Below, piece after piece: positions 48,318 through 63,137 of a DNA stretch of 64,000 bases. The notes beneath the pieces were generated by a model. That model was not told the origin of the DNA and did no database searches. It was given only the letters and a program-made list of their open reading frames with translations. The first letter of the stretch is position 1, and each line of letters starts with the position of its first letter. Position numbers and translations under genes: made by a program. Origin of the DNA: a virus (taxonomy: Duplodnaviria; Caudoviricetes); the IMG/VR virus record IMGVR_UViG_3300033061_001635, positions 111,134 through 175,133 of that record; one strand, given 5' to 3'.

Positions 48318-48572
48318 ATGGCTAATTATAAAAAGTGGGCACCCTCAGAATTGGACTATATTCAAAATAATCATAATGTGTTGTGTGATGAGAGTTTAGC
48401 AGCATCATTAAGTAAAATTACTGGACAAAATATTAGTACAGCAATGGTTCGTAGACAACGAAGGAAACTATCATTAAGGAAGAGCAGAGGACGTCCACGA
48501 AAGACCAAGCCTGCTATTGTTGCTACTACAGCATCATCAAATATTCAGGTTCAGCAGAGTGTACTGTCTTAA
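48318..48572 (+). CDS. Small basic DNA-binding protein (HTH-like plus AT-hook)
   Basis: KW...EL.YI..N....D..LA..L...VRRQRRKL followed by RGRPRK. Confidence 0.6.
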   Translation: MANYKKWAPSELDYIQNNHNVLCDESLAASLSKITGQNISTAMVRRQRRKLSLRKSRGRPRKTKPAIVATTASSNIQVQQSVLS

Positions 48573-48596
48573 ACTATTTAATTAAGAATTGATTAT

Positions 48597-48642
48597 AGCG
48601 GCGGCCATAGCTAAGAAATTAGTTGTGGCCGTTGTTGTTTTT
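48597..48642 (+). terminator. Intrinsic terminator
   Basis: GCGGCCATAGCTAA-gaaa-TTAGTTGTGGCCGT hairpin followed by a T-rich tail. Confidence 0.7.
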
Positions 48643-49324: not shown

Positions 49325-49402
49325 TAAAGTGTTGTGGCGTAAGACTTTACGACGAGTTATGGCCGCAAAAGTTGTCATAAACTCTTATGGGATAAGGACT
49401 TA
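49325..49402. repeat. 78-bp double-dyad element, copy 1
   Basis: TAAAGTGTT-N7-AAGACTTTA / 28 bp / TAAACTCTT-N7-AAGGACTTA. Confidence 0.9.
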
Positions 49403-49556
49403 CGTTAAATGACCCTAGCAAATGCTATGCCAAAAAATAAAGAATAATATATTCTCTAAAAAAAATAAAAAAAATAAAAGATTTCGCTTGCAACCTAAAG
49501 ATATGTCTGTATAATGTCGATATAAGAAGTAAGACAGAAGAGAAAAGGAAAAGAAA

Positions 49557-49775
49557 ATGATCAGCAGTTTTTCAGTTGGCGATTGGGTTGAGAGTGATGA
49601 AGAATATGGGATTGATTGTGAGAACTATCCGGTTTATCGAGTCGAGTCGGTGAACGACGATAATACCCTTACTGTACGCGACGAGGAAGGCAACGTTGGT
49701 CGGCTCAACGCCGACTATGTTTCTCATGCTGACATCGATTACATTCCCGGTCTTGACGATGGAGAGGGAATCTAA
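49557..49775 (+). CDS. Hypothetical acidic early protein (SH3-like beta pattern)
   Basis: 72 aa downstream of a promoter and AGGA RBS. Confidence 0.6.
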   Translation: MISSFSVGDWVESDEEYGIDCENYPVYRVESVNDDNTLTVRDEEGNVGRLNADYVSHADIDYIPGLDDGEGI

Positions 49776-49831
49776 TCTCCCCAGTAAGGGAACGAAAAAG
49801 ATTCTATAGAATACTCTCACAAGGAAAGAAA

Positions 49832-50152
49832 ATGAATAGTTTTGCAAGATTGAATCGGATTGGAATGGACGCAAATGCTACTAAGGATAAGGTAAGATAC
49901 TTGCGAGAAAAATATAATCTTGGATATGATATGCAACCAAAGGAACAAAAAATGTCCGTTTCTGAAATGATTTGCAAACTAGAATCTCATGGCCTGATCG
50001 TGCAGCGGTTGGAGCACGATAATGGTACGCTACACGTTGACGGCTATCATCCTCCCCATTGTAAGGGGCTGCCCGATTGGCTGTATGATTGCCCCGGTTG
50101 GGGGGTATCGTCATGCGGGGCTTCTAGGGTTTTCATGTTCAAGGTGGGCTAA
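49832..50152 (+). CDS. Hypothetical early protein
   Basis: 106-aa ORF with AAGGA RBS; start uncertain. Confidence 0.5.
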   Translation: MNSFARLNRIGMDANATKDKVRYLREKYNLGYDMQPKEQKMSVSEMICKLESHGLIVQRLEHDNGTLHVDGYHPPHCKGLPDWLYDCPGWGVSSCGASRVFMFKVG

Positions 50153-50179
50153 CCCCCCACTAGGGTTATGCACTCGACG

Positions 50180-50257
50180 TAAATCCTTGCTACATAAGAC
50201 TTTACGGCGAGGCGGGCCGCAGCGGCTTGACGCAAACTCTTATCTATCAACAACTTA
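50180..50257. repeat. 78-bp double-dyad element, copy 2
   Basis: 25+28+25 spacing; right dyad contains TATCAACAACTTA (exact WATCAAnnnnTTR). Confidence 0.9.
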
Positions 50258-50324
50258 GGAACCTTACGATATTTTAAGGAAACTTTTTTGTTGACACTCA
50301 AGATAGGTTTGGTATAATGTCGAT

Positions 50325-50549
50325 ATGAGAAACATGATGATCTTCAACACGATGAGCGAGTTGGTTGGTTTCCTGAGCAGTGCCGATTCTGCTACGCTGG
50401 TGAACGTTGCAGCGTTTGGAATGGATCTTCTGGATCTTGCTCGTAGCAACGGAAACGAAATCGAAATCGGTGAGGATGGCGGATTCATCCGAATCGACGA
50501 AATGGGTTACGTTGTGGAAGAGTTTGCGATTGACAACGTTTGCGAATGA
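50325..50549 (+). CDS. Hypothetical acidic early protein
   Basis: 74 aa directly after a promoter; start uncertain. Confidence 0.55.
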   Translation: MRNMMIFNTMSELVGFLSSADSATLVNVAAFGMDLLDLARSNGNEIEIGEDGGFIRIDEMGYVVEEFAIDNVCE

Positions 50550-50702
50550 TGATAGAATAGCAACACAAGAAAGAGAGAAAAAGATGATGCTGACTTTTGC
50601 CGATTATACGCTGCTTGTTGGATATCTTTCGGTTGCTGCGTTTGCATCGTATGCTGCTCACGAAGTATCCGGTGCTATTCGGGCTTATCTAGACGATTGA
50701 CC

Positions 50703-50780
50703 TAAAGCCTTATCGCATAAGACTTTGCGACGAGGCACGGCGGCGGCGATTTTCGTAAACTCTTATCGGCAAACGACTTA
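50703..50780. repeat. 78-bp double-dyad element, copy 3
   Basis: 25+28+25; begins 2 nt after the stop at 50700. Confidence 0.9.
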
Positions 50781-50876
50781 GCGAACCTTGCGGTATTGTA
50801 AGGAAACTTTTGTCTTGCAACCTAAAGAATACTCTGTATAATGTCGATATAAGAAGTAACCCACGAGGATAAGAAG

Positions 50877-51071
50877 ATGACGATCAACACCGAAATCACG
50901 ACAACCTATAATGGCAAGCGGTATACGGGATTTATTGTGGAAAGCAAGACGATAAAGAATCGTGAAATGATCACGATCATGATCAAGGATGATACGCGAA
51001 ATGATGGTATTGGCTATCGTAGCCTGTATGTTGACATGATGAGCCAAACTTCTGAAAATCTTTTTGCTTGA
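50877..51071 (+). CDS. Hypothetical early protein
   Basis: 64 aa; Y.GK...G....GYRS.Y motif shared with 53913-54116 and 58922-59221. Confidence 0.6.
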   Translation: MTINTEITTTYNGKRYTGFIVESKTIKNREMITIMIKDDTRNDGIGYRSLYVDMMSQTSENLFA

Positions 51072-51119
51072 CAAAGAAAAAAGTTTCTGTAGAATACATT
51101 CATCACCAAGGGAAATCAA

Positions 51120-51308
51120 ATGAACGATCTGAAAAGTCTTTTTCTTGCGATGGCTTCTGGTAAGTATGCTGGATTCCGAGATACTAAGGGTAAGGGATAT
51201 ATCGGAATCATTAACGGTATCATGCGTGAGGATGGTAGTGGCCGTAACTGGATCATTACTGTGACTGAGGGTATTAAGACTCAAAAGGTTTTCATTCACG
51301 CCACTTGA
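51120..51308 (+). CDS. Hypothetical early protein
   Basis: 62 aa with its own promoter; REDGSGRNW motif. Confidence 0.65.
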   Translation: MNDLKSLFLAMASGKYAGFRDTKGKGYIGIINGIMREDGSGRNWIITVTEGIKTQKVFIHAT

Positions 51309-51310
51309 CC

Positions 51311-51388
51311 TAAAGCCTTGCCGTATAAGACTTTACGGAGAGGCGGGCCGCCCGCGTTTTTCGTAAACTCTTACGCCACAACACCTTG
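51311..51388. repeat. 78-bp double-dyad element, copy 4
   Basis: 25+28+25; 2 nt after the stop at 51308. Confidence 0.9.
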
Positions 51389-51485
51389 CGAACCTTACGA
51401 TCTTTTAAGGGAAAATAAAAGATTCTGCTTGACTCGTTTGTTGATGATAGCGTATAATAGGTACAGAAAGAAAGAGGAACCCGAA

Positions 51486-51701
51486 ATGATCTCCGATAAC
51501 ATCAAACGTGCCTTGTGTCAGATTTGGGGAAGCGAAACGTACCATGTGATTCTGCTTCTCACAACGGACGGCCAACTGTATGCCGAATGTGAGGAAACGA
51601 TGGATCGTAGAAGGATCACCGAGAGCAACTACGTTGAAATACTGAATGATATGTTCTATAACTTCTGTATGGAAAAGGCATCGTGGATGGGCGTCTCATG
51701 A
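51486..51701 (+). CDS. Hypothetical early protein
   Basis: MISDNIKRAL..., GAGG RBS after a promoter. Confidence 0.6.
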   Translation: MISDNIKRALCQIWGSETYHVILLLTTDGQLYAECEETMDRRRITESNYVEILNDMFYNFCMEKASWMGVS

Positions 51702-51771
51702 CCCCCACTAGAGGGGTTGACGGACGAAAAAAATCTGATAAAATACATTCATCACCAAGAGGAAAAAGAAA

Positions 51772-52101
51772 ATGGCTACCAAGTTCAAAATCATCGAAGA
51801 TGCCAAGCGTCAGGTTCGCATGTGCTTTCTCGGCCTTGCTACTCGTCATCAACCATCGCTTGCCGATGGTGAATATGGCCCGATCCACAGTGAAAAGGTT
51901 CACAAGTTCAATCGCAAGGCGTTGCGTCGTGCTGGTAGCGTAAAGGCAGAAAAGACTGACCCCCGCTATAATGGGGGTGAGGATCTTATGATTCTAAAGG
52001 TGGGCAAGCCCGGTTCGGCCGAACGTAAGGAAGCACTGGCACAACAGTATGCGGCGATTCTGGCCTGTGGAGAGGAAGTCTCCCCCTTCGCGGAGGGGTG
52101 A
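51772..52101 (+). CDS. Hypothetical basic early protein
   Basis: 109 aa with GAGG RBS; PGS.E+...L...Y motif. Confidence 0.65.
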   Translation: MATKFKIIEDAKRQVRMCFLGLATRHQPSLADGEYGPIHSEKVHKFNRKALRRAGSVKAEKTDPRYNGGEDLMILKVGKPGSAERKEALAQQYAAILACGEEVSPFAEG

Positions 52102-52118
52102 CATCCGTACACTAATCG

Positions 52119-52196
52119 CAAAGCGTTACGGCGTAAGACTTTACGACGAACGCGGCCGCCACCGTTTGACGTAAACTCTTATCTATCAACGAGTTG
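52119..52196. repeat. 78-bp double-dyad element, copy 5
   Basis: 25+28+25; contains TATCAACGAGTTG (exact WATCAAnnnnTTR). Confidence 0.9.
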
Positions 52197-52306
52197 CGAA
52201 CCTTACGGTATTGTAAGGAAAAATATTCACGATACCCCCTTGCATTGGCCGATATCATCTGTATAATCATGGCATGATGATCACCACCACCAACGGAGAG
52301 CATAAG

Positions 52307-52501
52307 ATGCTGAACGACTTCGACGAAGAGAATGGTGTTCTGGCTGGCCTTGCCGAGCAGGGTATCATCGAGCCTATGGTCGAGCCGATTGACGATCCTA
52401 GTTTGGAAGTGAACTACTGGGATTGGGCAGAAGTGATTGGGGTTGTGGACGATTTGATTCCGACTGCCCCAGAAGAAGATAACTTTTGGAGGGGGTTGTA
52501 A
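52307..52501 (+). CDS. Hypothetical acidic early protein
   Basis: 64 aa with GGAG RBS. Confidence 0.6.
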   Translation: MLNDFDEENGVLAGLAEQGIIEPMVEPIDDPSLEVNYWDWAEVIGVVDDLIPTAPEEDNFWRGL

Positions 52502-52580
52502 ACCAAAATGCTAAACGCTATACTGTTCGTTGTGGCCTATGTTGGGCTTTGTTTCTGTACCATTGCAAAAGAGTAAAAAG

Positions 52581-52844
52581 ATGAGTCACCCTGATCCTTT
52601 GTTCGATCCCGATAACTCTTATGAGGATGATGAGATGAATCCTAACTATGATGACCATGACGATTTCTACGGTGATGATCTGGACGCTGATGAACTGATC
52701 GACCAGTGGGATGATGCTGACCATTATGATGACAGCATGGATGGTGATCACGACAGTGCCATGACTTCGTGCGGTTGGGGAACCGACGAGGACTACGGGT
52801 ATTATCCGGAGGACGAGTATGGCGATTGGGGAGACGATTACTAG
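52581..52844 (+). CDS. Extremely acidic protein (candidate nucleic-acid mimic)
   Basis: 87 aa, 34 Asp/Glu, no Lys/Arg, aromatic-rich. Confidence 0.65.
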   Translation: MSHPDPLFDPDNSYEDDEMNPNYDDHDDFYGDDLDADELIDQWDDADHYDDSMDGDHDSAMTSCGWGTDEDYGYYPEDEYGDWGDDY

Positions 52845-52847
52845 CCC

Positions 52848-52925
52848 TAAAGCCTTGCCGCATAACACTTTGCGGCGAGGCGGGCCGCACGGGTTCGACG
52901 TAAACTCTTATCTGCTAAGGACTTA
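52848..52925. repeat. 78-bp double-dyad element, copy 6
   Basis: 25+28+25; 3 nt after the stop at 52844. Confidence 0.9.
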
Positions 52926-53009
52926 CAGCAAAAAAAGATTTTTTAAAGAAAAACCTATTGACAGGCCGATAATAGATTGTACAATAGTGAAAAAGAAAGG
53001 GATCGAAAA

Positions 53010-53201
53010 ATGAAACTTTACCGACTAGTTTTGAATGACGAGCCGACCACCTATACGGTGGGTGGTTATGATTGGCCCGACGCGTTGCAGCGACTTGCCA
53101 CGACGAACCAGATGCTAAAAAATCTGCTTGACGAAACAAACACCGATCCTGCCATGGTCTATTTGAGGGAAAATACCAAGATTTCCTTCGAAGAGATTTG
53201 A
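53010..53201 (+). CDS. Hypothetical early protein
   Basis: 63 aa after a promoter. Confidence 0.55.
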   Translation: MKLYRLVLNDEPTTYTVGGYDWPDALQRLATTNQMLKNLLDETNTDPAMVYLRENTKISFEEI

Positions 53202-53422
53202 CTTTCAAAGTTTGTACTGTAAAATGTCGATATAAAGGAAAAGGAAAACAAATGTTTGGACTGGTATTTTTAGCGATTTTAGGTTATATGATGTATATCG
53301 AAATCGTCACCTGTTTTGAGAATCGACGAGACGAAAAAAGAATCCGCGAATATTTCAAGAATCGCGGTTGACAAAGCCGATAAGTAGAGTATACTTAGAA
53401 CATCACCCAGAAGGAAAAGAAC

Positions 53423-53746
53423 ATGACTCACGCAGAAGCAACAAAGATGGTTTTGGGCAAGCGGAATCGTGGCCAGCGTAAGGTTGGAAACAATACCTAT
53501 GCTTACATTCTGCTCGATGGAAGTGTGGCAATCGAGTTGCATGGTACTAAGGTGGTAACGATTCATCCTGATGATAGCGTGACACTGAATAGTGGCGGCT
53601 ATCATACAAGCACCACCAAAAAGCGTATCAATCAGTATAGCCCAGTGCGAGTGTACCAGAAGAACTACGAATGGTTTCTCAGTGATGGTACTCCGTTTGA
53701 GGATCGGATGATCGTGACCCCTGATTGGGTGGTTTGCCCCGTCTGA
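53423..53746 (+). CDS. Hypothetical early protein
   Basis: 107 aa; LHGT.V...L.SGGY.T.TTKKRIN...VYQK.Y.W. Confidence 0.7.
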   Translation: MTHAEATKMVLGKRNRGQRKVGNNTYAYILLDGSVAIELHGTKVVTIHPDDSVTLNSGGYHTSTTKKRINQYSPVRVYQKNYEWFLSDGTPFEDRMIVTPDWVVCPV

Positions 53747-53749
53747 CCT

Positions 53750-53827
53750 TAAAGCCTTGATGTATAAGACTTTACATCGAGGCCGGTCGGCCGCGTTTTT
53801 CCTAAACTCTTATCAACAAACGACTTA
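53750..53827. repeat. 78-bp double-dyad element, copy 7
   Basis: 25+28+25; 3 nt after the stop at 53746. Confidence 0.9.
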
Positions 53828-53912
53828 GCACAAAAACTTTTTTTAATGCTGCCACTTGACAAATGCCGATAATAGATGTAGACTTGATGGTATTCAACAA
53901 CGAGGAGTAGAT

Positions 53913-54116
53913 ATGAGAGATGCTGTGCTGGTTCCTGTGCGTCATGATAACGTGAGTTTCAAGTATCATGGTAAGGACTTTGTGGGTGAGGTTCGTCGAG
54001 TGTACGACAAGCCCAAGGGTCATTTGATGATCGTGAAGATCGAAGAGGGTAAGTATAGGTCGTGCTATCTGGAACAGTGCGAGGGATTGACCATTCACCT
54101 GTCTCACCCGATGTAA
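53913..54116 (+). CDS. Hypothetical early protein (WYL/SH3-like beta pattern)
   Basis: 67 aa with GAGGAG RBS; F.Y.GK...G.V...YRS.Y. Confidence 0.6.
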   Translation: MRDAVLVPVRHDNVSFKYHGKDFVGEVRRVYDKPKGHLMIVKIEEGKYRSCYLEQCEGLTIHLSHPM

Positions 54117-54598
54117 TCGGGTTGCTGACGGTGCTGTAGTCAGCAGGATAGTCGGAACTTGACAGAAAACACTTGGAAAGGTAGAATGGTGCAGATATGG
54201 GTGAAATCCTGTTGTGGTTTGTGGGAATGGTCGGGATTATTGCTCTAGGGTGTTTTATTTCTTGGATTTTGGAGATGGTATATGATTGATGATGGGGTTG
54301 TTCACTACTATACTGTGCAGATTTTGCTTCTTTTTCAGGATATGGTTGGTTTTGTTCTGGAGTTTATCTAAAGGAAAGGGCTACGGATGGCCGATATATA
54401 TCTAGACTGGAATAGTTTCGGTGTGGGATTTGTTATTGGCCTTGGTTGTGCTTGGTTTGTTTGTGATCTTGTTTTTCCATTAAGGAAGTAAGATGACTAT
54501 TAAGGATAAGATTATTCTAGGGGCTGCTGATATCTTGAATCCGTATGCTTGACAATGCTTGATTGTGTGATAAGATGAAACCAAAGGAGAAAGTGAAA

Positions 54599-54832
54599 AT
54601 GACGAAGTGTATTGTGACGGTTACTGATACGTTCGGTGGTGAGGCTAACTACGGTTGGGTGAAACGGTACGAGTTTCAGCCCCGTAATGCTGAGTCTCAG
54701 CGTAGTGTTATTCGACAGGCCAAGTCTCTGGCGAATATGACTGCGGTAAAGGCTGATACTTACGACTATGGTGATGGTTATACCGTGAAGCCGCGAGGAT
54801 ATAACCAGATTATCTTCGTTGATTTTGAATGA
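54599..54832 (+). CDS. Hypothetical early protein
   Basis: TDTFGGEANY.WV.R motif; AGGAG RBS. Confidence 0.7.
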   Translation: MTKCIVTVTDTFGGEANYGWVKRYEFQPRNAESQRSVIRQAKSLANMTAVKADTYDYGDGYTVKPRGYNQIIFVDFE

Positions 54833-54836
54833 GCCA

Positions 54837-54914
54837 TAAACCCTTGCTGCATAAGACTTTGCAGCATGGGTGGCCGCCCGCGTTTTTCGCAAACTGTTGT
54901 GGCATAAGGACTTG
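54837..54914. repeat. 78-bp double-dyad element, copy 8
   Basis: 25+28+25; 4 nt after the stop at 54832. Confidence 0.9.
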
Positions 54915-55017
54915 CGGCAAAAAGATTTTTTCAAGGTTACCCCTTGACAATGCCGATAATAGATGTATACTGGGGCTATCTGGTTTGGTTGGTCTTCACT
55001 ACACGAAAGGGATTTTT

Positions 55018-55425
55018 ATGAACGATGTTCTTCTTTTTGGTTCGATTGCTACGGTTGTTGTTTGCTGCCTTGCTATGTTTGCTGCTTATGGTATCTATGG
55101 TGGTGCTCATGGGTCGCTGTCAACGGCAAAGGCCGGAGAGTTCTATAACTTTGAATATCTCCAGCCTAATGCTGGTGACCCTGAGCGTTATCTGGCAAAG
55201 GTACTGAGTGTGCATGTGTTGGACGATAATGCTATTCGCAGGCTGAATGCTCGCAGTGCATATCGTCGCAATGATAGCAACTTTCAGCGTAGCAATCATC
55301 TGGTAACGTGCCAGACTGCTGATGGTAAGATTCGCAACTTCTATGCTGAACGTACCGTGAACTGCCGTAGGCCGCTGTTGGCTGGTGCAGTATTCAAGGC
55401 TGGTTTGGCAAGCCTTCTCTTCTGA
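55018..55425 (+). CDS. Membrane-anchored early protein
   Basis: N-terminal hydrophobic helix followed by a soluble domain (135 aa). Confidence 0.6.
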   Translation: MNDVLLFGSIATVVVCCLAMFAAYGIYGGAHGSLSTAKAGEFYNFEYLQPNAGDPERYLAKVLSVHVLDDNAIRRLNARSAYRRNDSNFQRSNHLVTCQTADGKIRNFYAERTVNCRRPLLAGAVFKAGLASLLF

Positions 55426-55455
55426 TTTTCTCGTGGTGGTGAAGTGACCTCGCTC

Positions 55456-55533
55456 TAAGTTCTTGCAAGCCAAGAGTTTAGGGCGAGGCACTCCGCCCGG
55501 ACTTGACGTAAAGTCTTATGCTGTATGGTTTTA
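55456..55533. repeat. 78-bp double-dyad element, copy 9 (inner arms in reversed form)
   Basis: 25+28+25; AAGAGTTTA...TAAAGTCTT. Confidence 0.85.
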
Positions 55534-55600
55534 GAGAAAAACTCTAGAGCATATTGACAAAGGGCCGATAATGTGTATAATGCGACTAAGGAGAAAGTTT

Positions 55601-55756
55601 ATGACGAATCACCAATGCCTAGCGGGAATGTCTTGGAGAGTGTTTCAGCATGGTCGATTTGTTGGCTATGTTGTATCGTTTAGCCAGTATGATGCTTGGA
55701 GAAAGGCTAAAGATAAGTATGGTAGTGATCTAAGGATTGAGAAGGTAGTCTGCTAA
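55601..55756 (+). CDS. Hypothetical early protein
   Basis: 51 aa with AAGGAG RBS. Confidence 0.55.
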   Translation: MTNHQCLAGMSWRVFQHGRFVGYVVSFSQYDAWRKAKDKYGSDLRIEKVVC

Positions 55757-55763
55757 ATATCTT

Positions 55764-55835
55764 GGCCCCATCTTCTAACGGTTAGGAAATCGGATTTTCG
55801 CTCCGAGAATCAGGGTTCGATTCCCTGTGGGGTCA
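55764..55835 (+). tRNA. tRNA-Glu(TTC)
   Basis: Cloverleaf GGCCCCA/TGGGGTC, anticodon arm TCGGA-TTTTCGC-TCCGA, T-arm CAGGG-TTCGATT-CCCTG; no encoded CCA. Confidence 0.9.
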
Positions 55836-55931
55836 TTGGCTTGTATCAGGTAATCCTGCGGATTTGGGCGGCGTGGGCATAGTCAGCGAGAACCCGTTGA
55901 CAAAAAAGCTTTATAGTGGTAGGATAGTGCC

Positions 55932-56522
55932 ATGCTTGCAACATTATTCTATTATCTGAGCAATAACCGTAAGGGTTGTTTGGATTTGTTGCGTCTTAGC
56001 AACACAATAGGTAACAGCTTGAACTCTAGGTGTGACAGATTTCTGAAAGCTGAAATCATTGACACTGCATATTCTCGTATTTTTCCACGGTTACAGTATG
56101 TGGATGAAATCGGATATGATTTTACTTTCTTTGATTGGAAAGTTTCTCAGAAAAGCCAATCGGGTGTTTTCAAGAAAAGGGCTCAAAAGACTAATAAAAT
56201 AATAGTATCTAATATTCATCAGGGGTGTGATATTAGTTATAAGATATTTGACTATATTATCATTACTCAAACTGCTCGCCCGTTCTCTATTGCTGTTGCA
56301 GAATATGATGTTGTTAGCCGGTTTATGAAAAATGAAAGGGATAGTATTACGGCCGAAATCCCTTTTAGCCATCTACAGTTTGTGGTTCATCCTAATGAGG
56401 ATATTAGTTTTGATAATGCCTCTATGGATTTTAAGGTTTATAAAAATGAGATGATAAATCGTATGTTGGATATGGGATTCTTGGAGAAAGTAGAACAATC
56501 GACGCAAGTTGCTGTGGCGTAA
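55932..56522 (+). CDS. Hypothetical protein, possibly restriction-endonuclease-like fold
   Basis: 196 aa; E...GYDF.....VSQK resembles a degenerate PD-(D/E)xK core; stop codon lies inside repeat copy 10. Confidence 0.5.
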   Translation: MLATLFYYLSNNRKGCLDLLRLSNTIGNSLNSRCDRFLKAEIIDTAYSRIFPRLQYVDEIGYDFTFFDWKVSQKSQSGVFKKRAQKTNKIIVSNIHQGCDISYKIFDYIIITQTARPFSIAVAEYDVVSRFMKNERDSITAEIPFSHLQFVVHPNEDISFDNASMDFKVYKNEMINRMLDMGFLEKVEQSTQVAVA

Positions 56523-56582
56523 GACTTTACAACAAAGCTGCCCGCCCGGTTTTGACGTAAACTCTTATCCTCTATAGACTTG
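56505..56582. repeat. 78-bp double-dyad element, copy 10
   Basis: 25+28+25; overlaps the upstream stop codon. Confidence 0.85.
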
Positions 56583-56663
56583 CATCAAAAAGTTTTTTTC
56601 TACAGAATACTCTCTTGACAGACCGATAATAGGAGTGTAGAATCATAGCACAGGAGACAAAAG

Positions 56664-56858
56664 ATGTTTGCCACTAAGTTTATGGATCATGCGGCTTACG
56701 CTAAAAAGGTTAAGAAGATGACTTATTCTGAACTTCTTTTTACGATTAAAGATTGTAGGGAAGTTTTGAAAGCGTGGCCTGACCAGCCAAACTATGGCTA
56801 CTATGCTGATGAAATCTGCTATTGCTCTGATGAAATCCGACGGCGACAAAAAATCTAA
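56664..56858 (+). CDS. Hypothetical early protein
   Basis: 64 aa with AGGAG RBS; L.F.IKDC.E......P..GYYADEI motif. Confidence 0.7.
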   Translation: MFATKFMDHAAYAKKVKKMTYSELLFTIKDCREVLKAWPDQPNYGYYADEICYCSDEIRRRQKI

Positions 56859-56912
56859 AGAACAGGGTATTGACAAGCCGATAATAGATGATAGAATGAG
56901 AGAGTAAGACAT

Positions 56913-57012
56913 GGAGAATGTAGCGTAATGGTAGCGTGTGGGAAGTTCCGAACTGCGACAGCAGAGTAGGCAAACAAATGCCCATGAGGTGGTTCGATTC
57001 CACTCTTCTCCC
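56913..57012 (+). ncRNA. tRNA-like RNA with expanded (~38-nt) anticodon loop
   Basis: GGAGAA/TTCTCC acceptor, TAGCGTAATGGTAGCG D-arm, GTGGG/CCCAT stem, GTGG-TTCGATT-CCAC T-arm; own upstream promoter. Confidence 0.55.
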
Positions 57013-57335
57013 CTAGTCACCAACGAAAATCCGATTCATTCGGTGTGCTACCCTCCATAAATGAGACCATAGCCTATATTGGTGACACAATACAAACGTG
57101 CGTCTAGCGACTAGATTAGATAACCTATTGGGGACGGCTGTGCTGGTTATGCACTGGGAACCGATACTAATCTACGGGGGTGCGATTCCTCTGCCACGCT
57201 CTAATACAACCAGTAATCGTTCCAAGAGCCAGACGGCATGAGTCATGAACTATGCCTAGGAAGGATTTCCGTGGGCGGTTTTCATAGAATCGGGGCGTAA
57301 AAGATTCGCTGGTATAATAAAAAAGGGGTTCGCTC

Positions 57336-57413
57336 TAAATGCTTACGCTGTAAGAGTTTAGGGCAAACTGCCGCGGCCACATTCGTCGTAAAGTCTTACC
57401 CACCAACAACTTA
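57336..57413. repeat. 78-bp double-dyad element, copy 11 (inverted)
   Basis: 25+28+25; inner arms and GCGGCC core both reverse-complemented relative to most copies. Confidence 0.9.
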
Positions 57414-57484
57414 GGATTGCTAAAGAAAAGCCTATTGACAAGCCGATAATACTAGTGTAGAATAGTAGCACAAGGAGAAAAACT

Positions 57485-57751
57485 ATGATTGGCTTTCAGC
57501 GATTTGGTTTGAGTGATCGTGTTGAGCGTTGGGTGAGTCACGATGGTGGCACTGTAACTTTTAGTGGCACTACCCATAGTGGCAAGAGTTTTTCTATCGT
57601 GACGTATCTTAGTGAGGCTAATCGTTGGGCTAATGGCGGATCGGTACAAGAGTGTTTCCCTCACTTAACTGCGGAAGAGCGTGAGATTCTGTTGACCGGA
57701 AACGACGATGAATCTTGGAGCAATATGTTTCCATCGGAGGACGAAGAATGA
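57485..57751 (+). CDS. Hypothetical early protein
   Basis: 88 aa; W..G..VQ.CFPHLTAEEREILLTG motif. Confidence 0.7.
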   Translation: MIGFQRFGLSDRVERWVSHDGGTVTFSGTTHSGKSFSIVTYLSEANRWANGGSVQECFPHLTAEEREILLTGNDDESWSNMFPSEDEE

Positions 57752-57978
57752 CCGTTAACGAACTGATTGAGCAGTTGAAGGGTTATCCGGGCGATATGAG
57801 GGTATTGACTCTTGGGTATGAGGGTGGATATAACGATATTCAACTTAGTACCGAAGATATCGTATTAAACTTCAAAGAGAATGATGCTTGGTATTATGGA
57901 CCTCATGAATGTGTGAAGTATACTGATAGTGATATTAGTCTGAAATGTGTGATTGTTGGAAGGGGTAGGGTAGGATAA
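57748..57978 (+). CDS. Hypothetical early protein
   Basis: MTV.ELIE.L..YP.DM.V...GYEGG..D; ATGA overlap with the upstream gene. Confidence 0.7.
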   Translation: MTVNELIEQLKGYPGDMRVLTLGYEGGYNDIQLSTEDIVLNFKENDAWYYGPHECVKYTDSDISLKCVIVGRGRVG

Positions 57979-57981
57979 ATA

Positions 57982-58239
57982 ATGGAATGGATTAGTTTTT
58001 TTGGTCCTCGTCGCCCTATCAACGGCCAAAAGGTTTATTACTTTGGCGAGTATATTGGGGTGTGGCAGGGAAGGTATGAGATTCATAAGGATGATCCAGT
58101 AAGTGAACATATCTTGATTTGTGAAGAAAGCCCCGGTATAGTAGATCGTATGGATGCTCCTTGGTGGATGCCATACGAGGGACAGCCAAAACCAAAACGA
58201 CCAGAAACTGACTACCCAAAGGATTATCCACATGGCTAA
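57982..58239 (+). CDS. Hypothetical protein (DUF551-like MEWIS...P...WMP.P pattern)
   Basis: 85 aa; motif pattern only. Confidence 0.55.
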   Translation: MEWISFFGPRRPINGQKVYYFGEYIGVWQGRYEIHKDDPVSEHILICEESPGIVDRMDAPWWMPYEGQPKPKRPETDYPKDYPHG

Positions 58240-58444
58240 AAACTTTAAAGATTTGATTAGTGCTGATCCTAAGACTATGACTAGGGAACAGGCTATGATT
58301 TATATTATCAACTTTTTTAGCTCTCGTATGATGACAACTAGTGTTAAGCATGTGAGTAAGGCTAAAGAGTTGATTGGACTGCATGAGATTGGTGCTTCTG
58401 AACTAGTGGATAAGTATGTGGAGTTAGTTTATGAAAACTCTTGA
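58232..58444 (+). CDS. Hypothetical protein
   Basis: 70 aa overlapping the upstream stop; AAGGA RBS. Confidence 0.55.
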   Translation: MAKNFKDLISADPKTMTREQAMIYIINFFSSRMMTTSVKHVSKAKELIGLHEIGASELVDKYVELVYENS

Positions 58445-58542
58445 TAATGTTTGTCATTGTGGTAACTGTAATGAACTGTGTTATATCTTAGATAAGCATG
58501 AGGTTTTTTGGAGTTTCTGTGCCGATTGCTACTGGTGGTATC

Positions 58543-58620
58543 TAAAGCATTGAAGCGTAAGACTTTAGAGCAAACCGGGGCGGCCGGATTTGACGTAAAG
58601 TGTTGTGGCATAAGCACTTA
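58543..58620. repeat. 78-bp double-dyad element, copy 12 (core inverted)
   Basis: 25+28+25; GCGGCC at core positions 13-18. Confidence 0.9.
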
Positions 58621-58703
58621 GAGAAAATCTTTTTTCTGTCTTGACAAAATAAAGTTCTCGTGGTAGAATGTCGATAATAGAAGTAGAAGAAAGAGAGTGA
58701 AAG

Positions 58704-58925
58704 ATGAGTTGGAATGGTTATCGGATGAGTAGAGATATGTGGGGCCACTTACGACATGAACATATCCATACTGGTTGGACTACAACTTTTGATATGGATG
58801 GTAAGCGTTGGAAAATGAAACTTGGTTCACAGTATACAACCAAGATGGAAGTTAAATGTAAGGTTTTATCTAAACACCCTACTGCTACTAATATTCGTTG
58901 TGAAAAAATCATTTGTGAGGTTTGA
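58704..58925 (+). CDS. Hypothetical early protein
   Basis: 73 aa after a promoter. Confidence 0.55.
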   Translation: MSWNGYRMSRDMWGHLRHEHIHTGWTTTFDMDGKRWKMKLGSQYTTKMEVKCKVLSKHPTATNIRCEKIICEV

Positions 58926-59221
58926 GTATGAATGGAAATAATCCTTATTGGCCGTATTGGATTGGTAATACCATGAACTTTACCTATAATGGTAAGAATG
59001 TTTGGGGGACTATACTCAAGTTTGGTAAAGATTGGGTAACCTGTATTACTAAGGACGGTTACCGATCTTACAAGTGGAACAAGATGAGTCCACCCTGTTT
59101 GTATCAGTGTAGAGTTAGTGAGTTGATTCTGCACTATGAGAGATATAATAATATGGATTTTGAATATCTGTATAAGTATTATGGGCCATCTAAGCCGATA
59201 GTTCAGTGGACTATGGATTGA
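58922..59221 (+). CDS. Hypothetical early protein
   Basis: F.YNGK...G......GYRSY motif; start uncertain. Confidence 0.55.
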   Translation: MSMNGNNPYWPYWIGNTMNFTYNGKNVWGTILKFGKDWVTCITKDGYRSYKWNKMSPPCLYQCRVSELILHYERYNNMDFEYLYKYYGPSKPIVQWTMD

Positions 59222-59223
59222 CG

Positions 59224-59301
59224 TAAGTCCTTGCAGTATAACACTTTACATCGAGGCTGCGGGCGACGGCTTGACGTAAACTCTTATGCCTCAACCACTT
59301 A
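59224..59301. repeat. 78-bp double-dyad element, copy 13
   Basis: 25+28+25; 2 nt after the stop at 59221. Confidence 0.9.
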
Positions 59302-59354
59302 GGATTTTTTAAAGAAAACTCTTGACAACACCCGATAATAGAGGTATACTTAGG

Positions 59355-59553
59355 CAGACAAGTGGGTGGGCCGTTGGCAGAATGATATCAAAGAAGCCAC
59401 GGTTAAATGGCGGCCGAGTATGGCTCAACCCAACGCTTGTCTTTCCTAATCCTACGGATTTGGTGGTCTTGGCGATAGTCAGCGAGAATATGTGTACCTT
59501 ATAAGCGGTGAAAGTCTAAAACGCTACTGGACGTTAGACCAGTATAGGTACAT
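59355..59553 (+). ncRNA. Candidate structured ncRNA(s)
   Basis: Follows a promoter with no RBS or credible ORF; long stems AGACAAGTG/CGCTTGTCT and TGTACCT/AGGTACA. Confidence 0.45.
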
Positions 59554-59599
59554 TTTTTAAGGTATTGACAACAGGATGCCGATAAGGTATACTATGAGC

Positions 59600-60082
59600 A
59601 TGAAACAGAAACCAGTGTACGGTGAGGTACGATTCCATCTTGGTGGTGGGGATCATTTTATGCACTGGCAAGTTCGGGTTAAGCAGGGAAGCAAAACTGT
59701 TGATGTGTATTATTATAACCCTAATGAATATCAGTTAGAAATGAGGGGTTGTAGACTTCGCAATCGACCAAATAAAGCCAAACAAGTATTTGAGGCTGGT
59801 GTGCATGATGTGAGCGGATGGGTAAAGTGTGAGGAAGTTATGCTTCGCAAGGATTTTTATCCTACGTTGCCTATTGACAATCTTGAGCGTGTGTTTTATA
59901 ATCCACTTCGTGATCCATACTGGCGTCGTGAGAGCGATAGCAATGAGTTCATATGGGATGAAAGCGAATACGCTACACTCATTACTAGTGGTAAACAAGT
60001 TTATATTTTAGAAGAACGACACTGCTCGTTCGACGATCTTAGAGAAATAGATTCCAAGTATTTAGGAGATTTTAAGGTATGA
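59600..60082 (+). CDS. Hypothetical early protein
   Basis: 160 aa; VRFHL..G..FM.WQV...L.N....A..V.....V.GWV.C...YNP...PYW. Confidence 0.7.
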   Translation: MKQKPVYGEVRFHLGGGDHFMHWQVRVKQGSKTVDVYYYNPNEYQLEMRGCRLRNRPNKAKQVFEAGVHDVSGWVKCEEVMLRKDFYPTLPIDNLERVFYNPLRDPYWRRESDSNEFIWDESEYATLITSGKQVYILEERHCSFDDLREIDSKYLGDFKV

Positions 60083-60462
60083 TTAATCTGCAACTGACTG
60101 TTCGTGAGGCTATGTATCTTGCTAGCAACTGGGCATACAACAATGATGCTGAACTGTATCATAAGATCGTGAACTCTGTGGAGATTGCGTTGGGCGTGAA
60201 CCAGAATCGCACCGTTACCATCACTGGTGGCATGACTCTGGATAATCGTATCTACTGTATCAGGGCTATCCGAACTCACACCGGATGGGGCTTGAAGGAA
60301 GCCAAGGATTGGAGCGATTATCTGGTTGGTGGCTGGAAGTACGATAAGTTTGTTCCTGCTGCTGCTGGTGCTAAGAATAGCGTTACTCTCAAGACTCCCG
60401 AAACGGCTGAGAATCTGCTGCGTGATCTTGTCGAGCATGGTTGTGAGGGTTTTCTCTCCTGA
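60079..60462 (+). CDS. Ribosomal protein bL12 (L7/L12) C-terminal-domain-like protein
   Basis: RIYCIRAIRTHTGWGLKEAKDWSD matches KI.VIK.VR..TGLGLKEAK..VE; C-terminal AE.L...L.E.G. Confidence 0.75.
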   Translation: MINLQLTVREAMYLASNWAYNNDAELYHKIVNSVEIALGVNQNRTVTITGGMTLDNRIYCIRAIRTHTGWGLKEAKDWSDYLVGGWKYDKFVPAAAGAKNSVTLKTPETAENLLRDLVEHGCEGFLS

Positions 60463-60465
60463 GCC

Positions 60466-60543
60466 TAAAGCCTTGCTGCATAAGACTTTGCGGCGAGGAC
60501 GGCCGCGGCGGTTCGACGTAAACTCTTATCGCATAACGACTTA
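60466..60543. repeat. 78-bp double-dyad element, copy 14
   Basis: 25+28+25; 3 nt after the stop at 60462. Confidence 0.9.
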
Positions 60544-60732
60544 GGAACAATCGTGAAAAAAACTAATGACAAGGGGTTGACAGTGCCGATAACTAGGGTA
60601 TACTGATAGCATCACACGACAAGACGCTGGTTGATCGCAACCAAAAAAGTTCGACCTAGCCCTTGACAAGTGATGATACGGTTGGTATGATTACTTTACT
60701 TGGTTCGATTACACTTTTTGGAGATGATTACT

Positions 60733-60987
60733 ATGCAAAAGTTTGCTTTCAATGTTGATATTGTTGCTACGGAACTGGATCGTGACGCGATTGTGGAGAG
60801 TCTGACCGCTGCCCTGAATGATAGCCTGCCCGGTGATGTTCACGCGAACGTCAAGGCTGGCGAAGTCAAGAGTTTTTCTGAGCAGGGTTATAAGGTGTGG
60901 CGTGCCCGTGTTACTGGTGTGACTGCGGACGCTGCGGGTGACTCCGCGAATCCTAAGAAGTCTAAGAAGGAAACGGTCGAGGCTTGA
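60733..60987 (+). CDS. Hypothetical early protein
   Basis: 84 aa with GGAG RBS. Confidence 0.65.
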   Translation: MQKFAFNVDIVATELDRDAIVESLTAALNDSLPGDVHANVKAGEVKSFSEQGYKVWRARVTGVTADAAGDSANPKKSKKETVEA

Positions 60988-61001
60988 TCTTGACTAACTG
61001 G

Positions 61002-61212
61002 ACTATGCCAGTATAAATAGATTTTAGGCATAGTGCGGCGGGGTAACTCCCGCGTAATGATGTCGGGGATTGACCCGACCTAGTAGAGTCTAACCAACTA
61101 ATAACCAGCGTGGTTGCTGGGAAGGGGTCTGCTGCTAGTACATAAACGATGGTAAAGTGGCTCCACCATCAACCGCAATAGCCCCCACGGGACGCCGTGC
61201 GGGGCTTGCGGC
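61002..61212 (+). ncRNA. Candidate multi-hairpin ncRNA
   Basis: Non-coding stretch with six successive stems (see findings). Confidence 0.45.
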
Positions 61213-61241
61213 GTTGAATGAGTATGCTATAATACAAACAC

Positions 61242-61313
61242 GGCCCCATAGTTAAATGGAGATAACAGGACTCTTCTAAAGTCTAGTTAGAGGTTCGATT
61301 CCTCTTGGGGCTA
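61242..61313 (+). tRNA. tRNA-Arg(TCT)
   Basis: GGCCCCA/TGGGGCT; GGACT-CTTCTAA-AGTCT; AGAGG-TTCGATT-CCTCT. Confidence 0.9.
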
Positions 61314-61316
61314 TTT

Positions 61317-61390
61317 GGGAATGTAGATCAATCGGTTAGATCGCTAGCCTGTCACGCTAGAGGTTGCGGGTTCGAGTCCCGTCATTCTCG
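61317..61390 (+). tRNA. tRNA-Asp(GTC)
   Basis: GGGAATG/CATTCTC; CTAGC-CTGTCAC-GCTAG; GCGGG-TTCGAGT-CCCGT. Confidence 0.93.
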
Positions 61391-61391
61391 C

Positions 61392-61469
61392 TAAGTCCTT
61401 ATCGGATAAGACTTTGCATCAAACTGGGGCGGCCGGATTTGACGTAAACTCTTGTGCTGTAACGGTTTA
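61392..61469. repeat. 78-bp double-dyad element, copy 15 (core inverted)
   Basis: 25+28+25; 1 nt after the tRNA-Asp discriminator. Confidence 0.9.
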
Positions 61470-61536
61470 AGATTTTCTACAGAATCTGCTTGACAATGCC
61501 GATACTGTAGTATAGAATCGTTAGCATAGGAGAAAC

Positions 61537-62244
61537 ATGATGAAAGTTGCAAACGGTAACGATAAGTTGGGCAAGGGTTGTTTGGTCGTGAGTCGGCCCG
61601 TTGGTGATACTTGTCCCCCTACTTGTGTTTATTTGGGCGACGGTTGCTATGCTGAGCAAACCGAGAAAATGTATCCTAATGTTCGTCCCGCTGGTATGAT
61701 GAATCTTATCACCGAGAAGAATCGTATTAGAGCCATGATTCTGGAAGCCATCCGTAAAGAAAAGAGTATTCGCTGGCACGAACGTGGCGACTGGTTTATC
61801 AACGGCGAACTTGACCTTGATTATCTGTCTAATGTAACGTGGGCTTGTGAGAGTATTCTGGCCGATGGTACTAGCCTGCCCGATATGTGGTTTTATACTC
61901 ATATTTATGATGATAGGCTTGTGAGTCTGGAAAAGTATATGAATGTATACGCCAGTGTTCATAATAATGAGGATATGGGTGCGGCATTGGCACAAGGTTT
62001 CAAACTGTTCGCATGGTGCGATAGTGACGAAAAGATTGCCAAGAAACGTCCTAAGCGTAAGGCGGCAGCGGAAGTGTGGCGTAAGAGTCTGCCTAAACTG
62101 GTTGTGCTGAATGATACAAAGTTTATCACTTGTCCCGAAATCCGTCGTGGTCGTGGTGTTGTGACTTGCACACCTACTGAGGGTAGTGTAGACTGTAATC
62201 TGTGCGTCAAGGGTTTAGCAAACGTATTGTTTCCATCACACTGA
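61537..62244 (+). CDS. Cys-rich gp88-like/radical-SAM-like protein
   Basis: TCP..C......CYA, IRWH..GD, W.YT, ASV and TCP...C.....C.LC motifs. Confidence 0.6.
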   Translation: MMKVANGNDKLGKGCLVVSRPVGDTCPPTCVYLGDGCYAEQTEKMYPNVRPAGMMNLITEKNRIRAMILEAIRKEKSIRWHERGDWFINGELDLDYLSNVTWACESILADGTSLPDMWFYTHIYDDRLVSLEKYMNVYASVHNNEDMGAALAQGFKLFAWCDSDEKIAKKRPKRKAAAEVWRKSLPKLVVLNDTKFITCPEIRRGRGVVTCTPTEGSVDCNLCVKGLANVLFPSH

Positions 62245-62251
62245 GGATATT

Positions 62252-62491
62252 ATGGAAAGTTTTACTCACGAATGTATCCGATTGAAAGATTATTGTGACC
62301 ATAACCATCTAGACTATGTTGATGTTATGGATATGGTTTGTAATAGTGATGTTAGTTTTGGTAACAACTATGATACTCTGGTGGCTCTGCCAGACTTGTG
62401 GGATATTCTGGATGATAATGGTGTTGACGTAGAAAAACTGGACGATGGCGGCTATAATGTTCACAATGTTCGTATTAGTCTAGGGAGTTAA
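62252..62491 (+). CDS. Hypothetical acidic protein
   Basis: 79 aa with GAGG RBS. Confidence 0.6.
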   Translation: MESFTHECIRLKDYCDHNHLDYVDVMDMVCNSDVSFGNNYDTLVALPDLWDILDDNGVDVEKLDDGGYNVHNVRISLGS

Positions 62492-62493
62492 TC

Positions 62494-62736
62494 ATGGCTA
62501 AGTATTATGTAAAGAGCGGAACACTAGAAGTTATACTGTCTCAACCTAATGCTCTAGAAGCGGCTATTTGTGGTTTGTTGCTAACAAATAAGTTTGATAC
62601 TATCGACGAGCACTTTTATGTGGATGAACAGGGATATAGAGATTATATTAGTGCTACTCCTAAAACTAATGTAATCGCCACAAAAAGTATTGTAAGGGCC
62701 GCAGGGTGGGAACTTTCTAGGGCGGATGACGAATAG
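62494..62736 (+). CDS. Hypothetical protein
   Basis: 80 aa; MAKYYV.SG.L...V.E.G. Confidence 0.65.
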   Translation: MAKYYVKSGTLEVILSQPNALEAAICGLLLTNKFDTIDEHFYVDEQGYRDYISATPKTNVIATKSIVRAAGWELSRADDE

Positions 62737-62739
62737 CCG

Positions 62740-62817
62740 TAAGTCCTTGGTGCATAAGACTTTGCATCAAGGCGGGCCGCGGCGATTTGTTGTAAAGTGT
62801 TTAGGGATAAGGGTTTA
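62740..62817. repeat. 78-bp double-dyad element, copy 16
   Basis: 25+28+25; 3 nt after the stop at 62736. Confidence 0.9.
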
Positions 62818-62897
62818 GGATTTTCTAAAGTTGATCGGGCCTTTTGGCCGATAAATACTCTATGAATGAGAAGAGGGTCTTGACAAGGAACGGAACA

Positions 62898-63137
62898 ATG
62901 ATACAATGGGTTGGTGTGCTTATTGCTCTGTTAGGGTTGGCCTATAATGGTGTAAAAGATTATCAAACTGGGAATATAAAAATCCCAGAGTTGACTCAAC
63001 AAAAAGAGTTGACAAAGGTAGTTTATCCGGTACAATACTGTTTAATGGCGTATGATCCTAACGTAAACAAAGTTTTTTATCAACACGAAAATGGAAAGTG
63101 GTATGAATATGCTCCCCAGCAACGAAAATACAAATAA
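62898..63137 (+). CDS. Membrane-anchored hypothetical protein
   Basis: N-terminal hydrophobic helix, 79 aa. Confidence 0.5.
   Translation: MIQWVGVLIALLGLAYNGVKDYQTGNIKIPELTQQKELTKVVYPVQYCLMAYDPNVNKVFYQHENGKWYEYAPQQRKYK

Follow-up and report, generated by a model that had tools for sequence, protein, structure and literature searches.

A lineage-variable 78-bp double-dyad element upstream of early promoters in an uncultivated phage clade

The accepted explanation for the shuffling of small early genes in T4-type phages lies in promoter-early stem-loops (PeSLs), repeated regulatory cassettes between which homologous exchange takes place at variable crossover points and with no dedicated enzyme (Arbiol et al. 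2010, PMC2839356; Comeau et al. 2014, PMC4122927). In Cluster A mycobacteriophages such as L5 and Bxb1, another class of repeated phage sites, the stoperators, is located mostly outside promoters and acts by blocking elongation (PMC6550527, PMC9283540). Here we analyze the final 64 kb (the window, 64,000 nucleotides) of the 175,133-bp virus record IMGVR_UViG_3300033061_001635 (33.7% G+C), in which 16 copies of a 78-bp double-dyad element are interspersed with small genes, each copy upstream of a sigma70-type promoter. Our best reading of these sequences, to which we give about an even chance, is that each copy would act as a boundary module of paired operators ahead of an early promoter, some copies also containing a stop-linked RNA hairpin, and that PeSL-like recombination would result from the repetition of the element.

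The record is rated complete (100%) by CheckV. By terminase the closest cultured phages are Bacillus and Microcystis phages with at most 24% identity, and PHROG matches were absent or weak for 8 of the 10 large proteins scanned; on both counts the phage is not a T4-type myovirus. Terminases 77 to 97% identical to its own are encoded on more than 595 viral contigs of up to 170 to 240 kb, and the phage therefore belongs to a large uncultivated clade.

The double dyad, its family, and its promoters

All 16 copies listed in the original prediction were recovered at the same starts. They align ungapped over 78 bp and were the only copies returned when a weight-matrix profile was scanned over the whole 175,133-bp genome, where they occupy one 13.5-kb region (genome positions 160,458 to 173,950; window positions 49,325 to 62,817; Table 1). 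The element consists of two 25-bp dyads, comprising four 9-bp half-sites of the AAG-NN-TTTA type, that flank a GC-rich spacer at a fixed distance; the G+C content is 70% in the core versus 35% in the dyads. The dyad centers, at columns 13 and 66, are 53 bp apart, as first described. Near-invariant AA is found at columns 2-3, 17-18, 55-56, and 70-71 and near-invariant TT at columns 8-9, 23-24, 61-62, and 76-77, and even this bare skeleton had zero matches in shuffled loci, which places the pattern far beyond chance. The strict dyad pattern proposed previously fits 14/16 copies and matches nowhere else in the genome, but it is broken at one half-site in the copy at 55456 and at two in the copy at 56505. 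The hexamer GGCCGC, said to be usual at core positions 11 to 16, is present there in only 7/16 copies, so that the word was generous. Adjacency to stop codons or tRNA ends was likewise borne out in part: eight copies (50703, 51311, 52848, 53750, 54837, 59224, 60466, and 62740) begin 2 to 4 nt after the stop codon of the best upstream open reading frame (ORF) and one follows a tRNA, but at two others (56505 and 58543) the upstream ORF terminates within the element.

Related elements were collected by an exact-pattern scan and a weight matrix over loci from relatives. In total, 395 hits were obtained in 81 loci, corresponding to 246 distinct copies, all of which align ungapped with zero indels; when the spacing was left free in the search, the gap between the inner arms was 22 nt in 355 hits and 21 and 23 nt in 2 hits each. 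Copies within one array are almost all co-oriented, and in terminase-anchored loci the array adjoins the terminase on the opposite strand. Phages with only 77 to 80% terminase identity retain the 78-bp frame but differ in the inner half-sites, in which, e.g., AAGACTTTA is replaced by AAGGACTTA or AAGCACTTA. The two inner half-sites change in concert, with one variant per genome in all copies, and columns 47 to 56 stay constant.

Other relatives carry a different structure at the same place. In three loci (L110, L114, and L131), an unrelated double dyad occupies the element's slot before the A-tract and the sigma70 promoter; it is made of two 15-bp palindromes (CTGCCAnnnTGGCAG), always 29 bp apart from start to start, with a GC-rich spacer. 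The locus L120 has one dyad only, which matches the element's right half, together with a GC palindrome. Some cargo genes, e.g., the one at 51772-52101, are found beside both element types. No early-promoter array is present in the captured flank of L084 and L078, which are thus uninformative on element loss. A survey of 185,579 bacterial and archaeal species, each represented by a single genome, yielded no true copy; the 24 pattern matches that could have placed the element in candidate hosts were all single and all negative by the full matrix and are therefore attributed to chance. A comparison with Rfam, as a check for an already described RNA family, gave no match to the elements.

That every copy is followed by a promoter was confirmed for 16/16 copies, the promoters being of the sigma70 type and accompanied by A/T tracts. 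The element is confined to a part of the genome in which such promoters are ∼30 times denser than elsewhere. Matches to TTGAC-N-TAnnnT number 29 in the last 15 kb compared to approximately 1 per 5 kb in the rest. Promoter distances were measured from column 78 to the start of the -35 hexamer in 126 nonredundant downstream contexts. The -35 hexamer starts 20 to 22 nt (28 families), 30 to 35 nt (53 families), 41 to 45 nt (5 families), or 62 to 63 nt (5 families) past the element, and the intervening DNA is rich in A/T tracts and UP element-like. The periodicity of these distances peaks at 10.5 to 11 bp (R = 0.64), which suggests face-of-helix coupling of element and promoter; because mostly two distance classes carry the signal, we treat it as supportive only.

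Additional motifs are present in the promoter regions. Between window positions 49488 and 63470, a conserved box is found in the sigma70 promoters, either GCCGATAA within the spacer (later copies) or GTCGATAT right after the -10 box (copies 1 to 3), and a TAAAG-like box is located 14 to 16 nt upstream. The pair resembles sigma28 (FliA-type) promoters, with a spacing ∼2 nt longer than the consensus, and after copy 16 it occurs in near-pure form without a -35 TTGACA. An extra 18-bp dyad of the CCTTAC-N6-GTAAGG type is found at elements 2 to 5 only (50262-50279, 50786-50803, 51393-51410, and 52201-52218), 4 to 5 nt past the element and just before the -35 box. Just past element 1, a single sigma54-like box (TGGCATAGCATTTGC; 49418-49432, minus strand) is directed at the minus-strand genes.

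Recombination seams and strand folding

Unit order is mostly colinear among relatives, and the differences involve whole units that are missing, inserted, or duplicated, as well as one swap. Cassette shuffling had been offered as one model for the array, and its descriptive part stands, since units are gained, lost, duplicated, and once swapped; its site-specific, attC-like part does not. Synteny was found to break at the elements more often than expected, in line with that model: 21 of 75 homology-block ends fall there, versus 11.3% expected (∼2.5-fold; p = 6e-5). The clearest junction is a chimeric element in the relative L025, whose left part and flank derive from window element 12 and whose right part and flank derive from element 13. 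The switch lies in the stretch shared by both parents, columns 47 to 57, and unit 12 has been removed. Across the 11 recombinants mapped, the crossover intervals are scattered from column -8 to +94 (∼100 bp). A search of the genome for a recombinase returned no tyrosine or serine recombinase and no Phage_integrase match, and the transposase family Y1_Tnp gave only a subthreshold hit (14.5 bits). The scattered crossovers, together with the lack of a recombinase, point to homologous recombination between repeats, as in PeSLs, and not to attC-like site-specific recombination. Thus, the elements are seams at which genes are gained, lost, and swapped by PeSL-like homologous shuffling rather than by an integron-like process.

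Covariation and folding were analyzed on 216 to 219 distinct copies. As a folding control, each alignment column was shuffled among copies, which keeps the conservation but destroys complementarity within a copy. The covariation check proposed for separating a DNA site from an RNA hairpin came out negative for the element as a whole: the Watson-Crick fraction at variable columns matched the expectation from column makeup on every palindrome diagonal, and base-pair covariation was not found at the conserved AA/TT positions. The strongest covariation links columns 21 and 58 (C,C in 132 copies; G,G in 28; A,T in 25) and pairs identical, not complementary, bases, meaning that a "C-type" inner half-site is usually combined with a "G-type" one, whichever comes first. 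A long RNA hairpin spanning the whole element was rejected, its energy being no better than that of the column-permuted controls. The right half and the GC core (∼-4 kcal/mol) also equaled these controls, and a terminator in the core was rejected.

The left part of the element behaves differently. Columns 3 to 36 alone fold better than the control (-10.6 versus -6.3 kcal/mol), columns 5 to 15 pairing with columns 24 to 34 around a conserved loop, TAAGACTT. The energy of this left hairpin is bimodal, with 80/216 copies (∼37%) at or below -14 kcal/mol and 92 copies at or below -12 kcal/mol. An upstream stop codon begins 5 to 7 nt before the element in 66/92 hairpin-strong copies versus 4/93 hairpin-weak copies; in the window, hairpin and stop adjacency coincide completely, in the same eight copies. 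No U-tract follows the left hairpin. A substitute hairpin upstream of the hairpin-weak copies was considered and not found, the upstream flanks folding slightly less well. G-T mismatches are about as frequent as A-C mismatches, which indicates no clear strand preference. Canonical terminators are almost absent from the array, where only the copies at 51311 and 54837 have terminator-like scores. The only strong canonical terminator near the array, at 48595-48638 on the plus strand, has a 20-pair stem and a T run and follows the gene at 48318-48572.

Readings of the element

The rigid spacing, the absence of pairing covariation, the lineage-specific dyads, and the promoter phasing are the grounds on which we favor a DNA-level binding platform, and from which we infer protein binding, the kind of binder, and its effect. 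To this extent, the nucleoprotein scaffold suggested in the original prediction remains the best reading, but its assignment to IHF or HU is not supported, given the rarity of the IHF consensus and the lack of a phage HU/IHF gene. Each boundary would be a composite cassette made of the end of a gene, the element, a UP-like A/T tract, and a strong sigma70 early promoter. A dimeric or tetrameric regulator, probably phage encoded rather than host encoded and specific to the lineage, could occupy the four half-sites; once bound, it may shut off or activate the adjacent promoter, act as a stoperator-like roadblock to upstream read-through, or both. In ∼40% of copies the left half also encodes an RNA hairpin directly past the upstream stop codon. 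With repeated, co-oriented copies, homologous recombination adds, deletes, and reorders whole units, as in PeSLs.

Several observations weigh against the binding platform. In each dyad, 16 bp (∼1.5 helical turns) separate the half-site centers, an unusual arrangement for a simple dimer. Approximately 19 of the ∼35 sigma70-type promoters in the region lack an element, which is therefore not needed for promoter activity, and the spacing periodicity, coming mainly from two classes, could reflect a pair of ancestral architectures. Since descent and gene conversion link all copies, concerted change alone is no proof of coevolution with a protein. The left hairpin shows real compensatory changes in many different stems and is tied to stop codons, which indicates that part of the element works, or also works, as RNA or as a single strand. 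In addition, no binding protein was identified among the phage genes searched: a search for helix-turn-helix proteins in the phage gave only a weak, marginal HTH_3 hit, and a 271-aa protein and the sigma-like protein beside the array were discarded as binders because they are conserved whatever the element type.

The remaining candidates were examined in the same genome. No HU/IHF gene, suggested earlier as a possible source of the binder, was found in the phage genome. A 196-aa sigma70-family factor (genome positions 31096-31686, plus strand; L172:1066-1656) has a strong region 4 match (TIGR02937, 58 bits), and the sigma-like protein next to the array (218 aa; window positions 47430-48086, minus strand) has a weak region 2 match. 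The presence or absence of array genes across loci, which are too incomplete for this purpose, singled out no candidate. A sigma54 enhancer role was rejected: TGGCAC-N5-TTGC boxes are frequent in L110 (eight in 4.2 kb) and L120, but only one is near the window array, and no sigma54 activator was found in the phage. A promoter hidden in the element, whether of the sigma70, extracytoplasmic function (ECF), or sigma28 type, was rejected because no -10 partner lies at a workable distance; the corresponding motifs are also absent before late genes.

A pair of dyads with fixed geometry and lineage-swapped sequence looks like the operator sets of diversifying DNA-binding proteins, for which stoperators and their repressor offer a parallel. 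By extension, and as a tentative proposal that we consider possible but somewhat unlikely, the early region of this integrase-less clade of 170- to 240-kb phages might be run by paired-operator arrays for a phage-encoded regulator that has diversified by lineage, as immunity specificities have, the bound element blocking read-through and, at a constant helical phase, gating the sigma70 promoter that follows. The lineage types under such a diversified regulator are the TAAAG-type double dyad, the half-element, and the unrelated CTGCCA-type double dyad.

The alternatives divide according to the part of the evidence that they take as primary. If the folding of the left half is taken as primary, the element would be mainly RNA, the stem-loop half of a PeSL-type terminator/promoter cassette that ends or stabilizes the upstream transcript, the half-sites being secondary. 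The folding excess over controls with its many compensating stems, the link between hairpin and stop codon, the near lack of other canonical terminators in the array, and the transcription termination shown for PeSL stem-loops (PMC2839356) all speak for this, but we consider it improbable as an account of the whole element. A stable hairpin exists in only ∼40% of copies, so that the hairpin subset is explained but not the rest, whose members have no substitute hairpin upstream; no U-tract follows, the core and the right half do not fold in excess, neither strand is clearly preferred, and an RNA hairpin would need neither zero length variation nor a palindrome at the level of sequence. If the gain, loss, and reordering of units are taken as primary, the palindromic four-box layout could instead be the site of a dedicated site-specific recombinase, in an integron-like cassette system with non-attC sites. 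The L025 junction and the 5/11 crossovers located in columns 35 to 57 would agree with such a site, which is nevertheless extremely unlikely in view of the crossovers outside these columns, the largely colinear unit order, and a 100% complete genome with no tyrosine/serine recombinase and only a subthreshold Y1 transposase hit. Moreover, the spacer between its inner arms, 16 to 20 bp, is far above the 6- to 8-bp overlap of tyrosine-recombinase sites.

Three other explanations start from the surroundings of the element. A host nucleoid protein (IHF, HU, Fis, or similar) could bend the upstream DNA and thereby boost early promoters or organize incoming DNA, consistent with the position upstream of strong promoters with A-tracts, with spacing classes about one helical turn apart, and with an AA-N4-TT skeleton that overlaps the loose part of the IHF consensus. 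Exact matches to that consensus (WATCAANNNNTTR) had been noted in the copies at 50180 and 52119 and are indeed limited to these 2/16 copies; in the family the full consensus is present in only 10/216. Half-sites that differ between close phages, and the unrelated dyads of others, would be compatible with a host factor only if hosts differed from lineage to lineage, and the bacterial genomes searched hold no true copies, so we regard this explanation as quite unlikely. The half-sites could also be -35-like boxes for a phage sigma factor, the element recruiting or titrating a phage-modified RNA polymerase. Their sequence, TAAAG(C/T)CTT, resembles TAAAGTTT, which we take to be the sigma28 -35 consensus; the GCCGATAA/GTCGATAT boxes with their TAAAG-like partner are interleaved with the sigma70 promoters, and the phage encodes the 196-aa sigma70-family factor in addition to the second, weak sigma-like protein beside the array. 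Against this role, which we rate as very unlikely, none of the half-sites has a -10-like box at an appropriate distance, the symmetry differs from that of a promoter, and the motifs do not occur ahead of late genes. Finally, an imperfect palindrome after stop codons recalls bacterial REP/BIME repeats, and the element might be a selfish REP/BIME- or MITE-like repeat spread through intergenic DNA. With copies co-oriented in one 13.5-kb region, in a fixed relation to the promoter, with position and length kept across the clade, and with the Y1 (RAYT-type) transposase hit below threshold, the probability of a selfish repeat appears minimal.

The array extends PeSL-like evolutionary behavior to an unrelated, uncultivated phage clade, in which the nonpromoter part of the unit has the hallmarks of a protein-binding array, not of a hairpin, with dyads that differ by lineage at one place. 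The fixed seams explain where genes are gained and lost in the region likeliest to hold host-takeover and counter-defense genes. If a cognate regulator of the paired operators exists, the arrays would provide a handle on a poorly understood aspect of large lytic phages, early-gene shutoff or insulation, and the lineage variants would constitute a natural set of orthogonal operator/regulator pairs.

Genome setting and comparison with described systems

Up to ∼48 kb, the window holds minus-strand genes, including those for the tape measure, tail, portal, and terminase proteins. From ∼48.3 kb to its end, ∼35 small plus-strand genes (32 to 235 aa) are accompanied by seven tRNAs and very dense host-type promoters; a Pfam family is missing for nearly all of these genes, and gene content in the region differs between relatives. 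One early gene (53423-53746, plus strand) matches the Kyanoviridae Gp96 family (PF23790; E = 1.7e-10), a family of T4-like cyanophages. A Pistol ribozyme match on the plus strand (60997-61059; RF02679, 52.4 bits versus a gathering score of 34.5) is situated between a gene ending at 60987 and tRNA-Arg. A borderline tRNA-like match (56914-57011, plus strand; 28.7 bits versus a threshold of 29, no ARAGORN call) has its own promoter at 56870, and tRNA-Ser (63904-63990, plus strand), called with the unusual anticodon ACT, is followed 10 nt further by the end of the record.

Table 1. Element copies and adjacent promoters (window positions) and the alternative boundary element of relatives (locus positions)
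Feature	Position	Strand	Remarks
Copy 1	49325-49402	+	No left hairpin
Promoter after copy 1	49488-49515	+	Sigma70-type
Copy 2	50180-50257	+	Weak left hairpin; exact IHF-consensus match at columns 66-78
Promoter after copy 2	50291-50318	+	Sigma70-type, 12/12 consensus
Copy 3	50703-50780	+	Left hairpin, columns 5-34; upstream TGA ends 2 nt before
Promoter after copy 3	50815-50842	+	Sigma70-type
Copy 4	51311-51388	+	Left hairpin; stop ends 2 nt before; core is a short GC stem plus T run
Promoter after copy 4	51429-51458	+	Sigma70-type
Copy 5	52119-52196	+	No left hairpin; exact IHF-consensus match
Promoter after copy 5	52240-52267	+	Sigma70-type; TTGCAT, 16 nt, TATAAT; read directly from sequence
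Copy 6	52848-52925	+	Strong left hairpin; stop ends 3 nt before
Promoter after copy 6	52958-52985	+	Sigma70-type
Copy 7	53750-53827	+	Strong left hairpin; stop ends 3 nt before
Promoter after copy 7	53856-53884	+	Sigma70-type
Copy 8	54837-54914	+	Strong left hairpin; stop ends 4 nt before
Promoter after copy 8	54944-54971	+	Sigma70-type
Copy 9	55456-55533	+	Inner half-sites of swapped (G,G) type; no left hairpin
Promoter after copy 9	55554-55581	+	Sigma70-type; -35 starts 21 nt past element
Copy 10	56505-56582	+	Upstream ORF 55932-56522 ends inside
Promoter after copy 10	56615-56643	+	Sigma70-type
Copy 11	57336-57413	+	Swapped (G,G) type; no left hairpin
Promoter after copy 11	57435-57463	+	Sigma70-type
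Copy 12	58543-58620	+	Left parent of chimeric element in relative L025
Promoter after copy 12	58641-58669	+	Sigma70-type
Copy 13	59224-59301	+	Left hairpin; stop ends 2 nt before; right parent of L025 chimera
Promoter after copy 13	59322-59350	+	Sigma70-type
Copy 14	60466-60543	+	Left hairpin; stop ends 3 nt before
Promoter after copy 14	60577-60604	+	Sigma70-type
Copy 15	61392-61469	+	Directly after tRNA-Asp (61317-61391)
Promoter after copy 15	61490-61518	+	Sigma70-type
Copy 16	62740-62817	+	Left hairpin; stop ends 3 nt before
Promoter after copy 16	62880-62907	+	Sigma70-type; -35 starts 63 nt past element
CTGCCAnnnTGGCAG-type boundary element	L110:429-4300, L114:723-766, L131:253-951		Followed by TGGCAC-N5-TTGC (sigma54-like) boxes

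The element shares single features with several known sequence types. Apart from the terminator-like copies at 51311 and 54837, it lacks the GC-rich hairpin immediately before a U-run that characterizes an intrinsic terminator. With IHF sites (WATCAANNNNTTR) it has the AA-N4-TTR part in common, which matches every half-site, whereas the discriminating ATC part is found only in the 10/216 copies mentioned above. Integron attC sites are of variable length, are recognized as folded single strands by the IntI integrase, and recombine at one fixed position. The element resembles them in its palindromic layout of four boxes next to cassette-gene ends, but here the length is fixed at 78 bp, the sequence is conserved, pairing covariation is absent outside columns 5 to 34, crossovers are scattered, no integrase is present, and each unit has its own promoter. 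REP/BIME repeats, including the IHF-binding RIB/RIP type, are imperfect palindromes that occur as inverted pairs and directly after stop codons, and they have been proposed to bind IHF and gyrase and to stabilize or attenuate upstream mRNA. These repeats are scattered genome-wide in varied arrangements and are associated with RAYT transposases, whereas the element has one architecture, one location, and no transposase.

Stoperators, which number 20 to 30 protein-binding sites per genome, are comparable in being many and oriented with transcription, here in the form of co-oriented arrays. Their consensus varies with the cognate phage protein, just as the half-site variants are lineage specific and an alternative dyad type exists. 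They differ in being single asymmetric sites of ∼13 bp that are distributed genome-wide and bound by the monomeric immunity repressor of temperate phages, while the present elements are symmetric 78-bp double dyads restricted to the early region of a phage without an integrase, with a hypothetical binder.

The closest correspondence is with PeSLs. Both are repeated composite units placed between small genes of unknown function in a plastic early region, and in both a structured, GC-containing part is followed by an AT-rich tract and then by a strong sigma70 promoter. In both, insertions, deletions, and replacements arise by recombination between the repeats; the positions of the chimeric junctions vary, and no recombinase is dedicated to the process. 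Another trait of PeSL cassettes is the formation of mini-circles during infection. The phage itself, in contrast, is not T4-like (terminase ∼24% identical to the nearest cultured phages), and the nonpromoter part of its unit, a 78-bp double dyad of constant length, shows a conservation that hairpin folding does not explain. A possible counterpart to the PeSL stem-loop, the covarying hairpin, is present in 8/16 copies of the window and ∼40% of the family, lacks a U-tract, and has a putative role in termination. The architecture and evolutionary role of the element match those of PeSLs, for which a fixed double dyad and its lineage-specific replacement have not been described.

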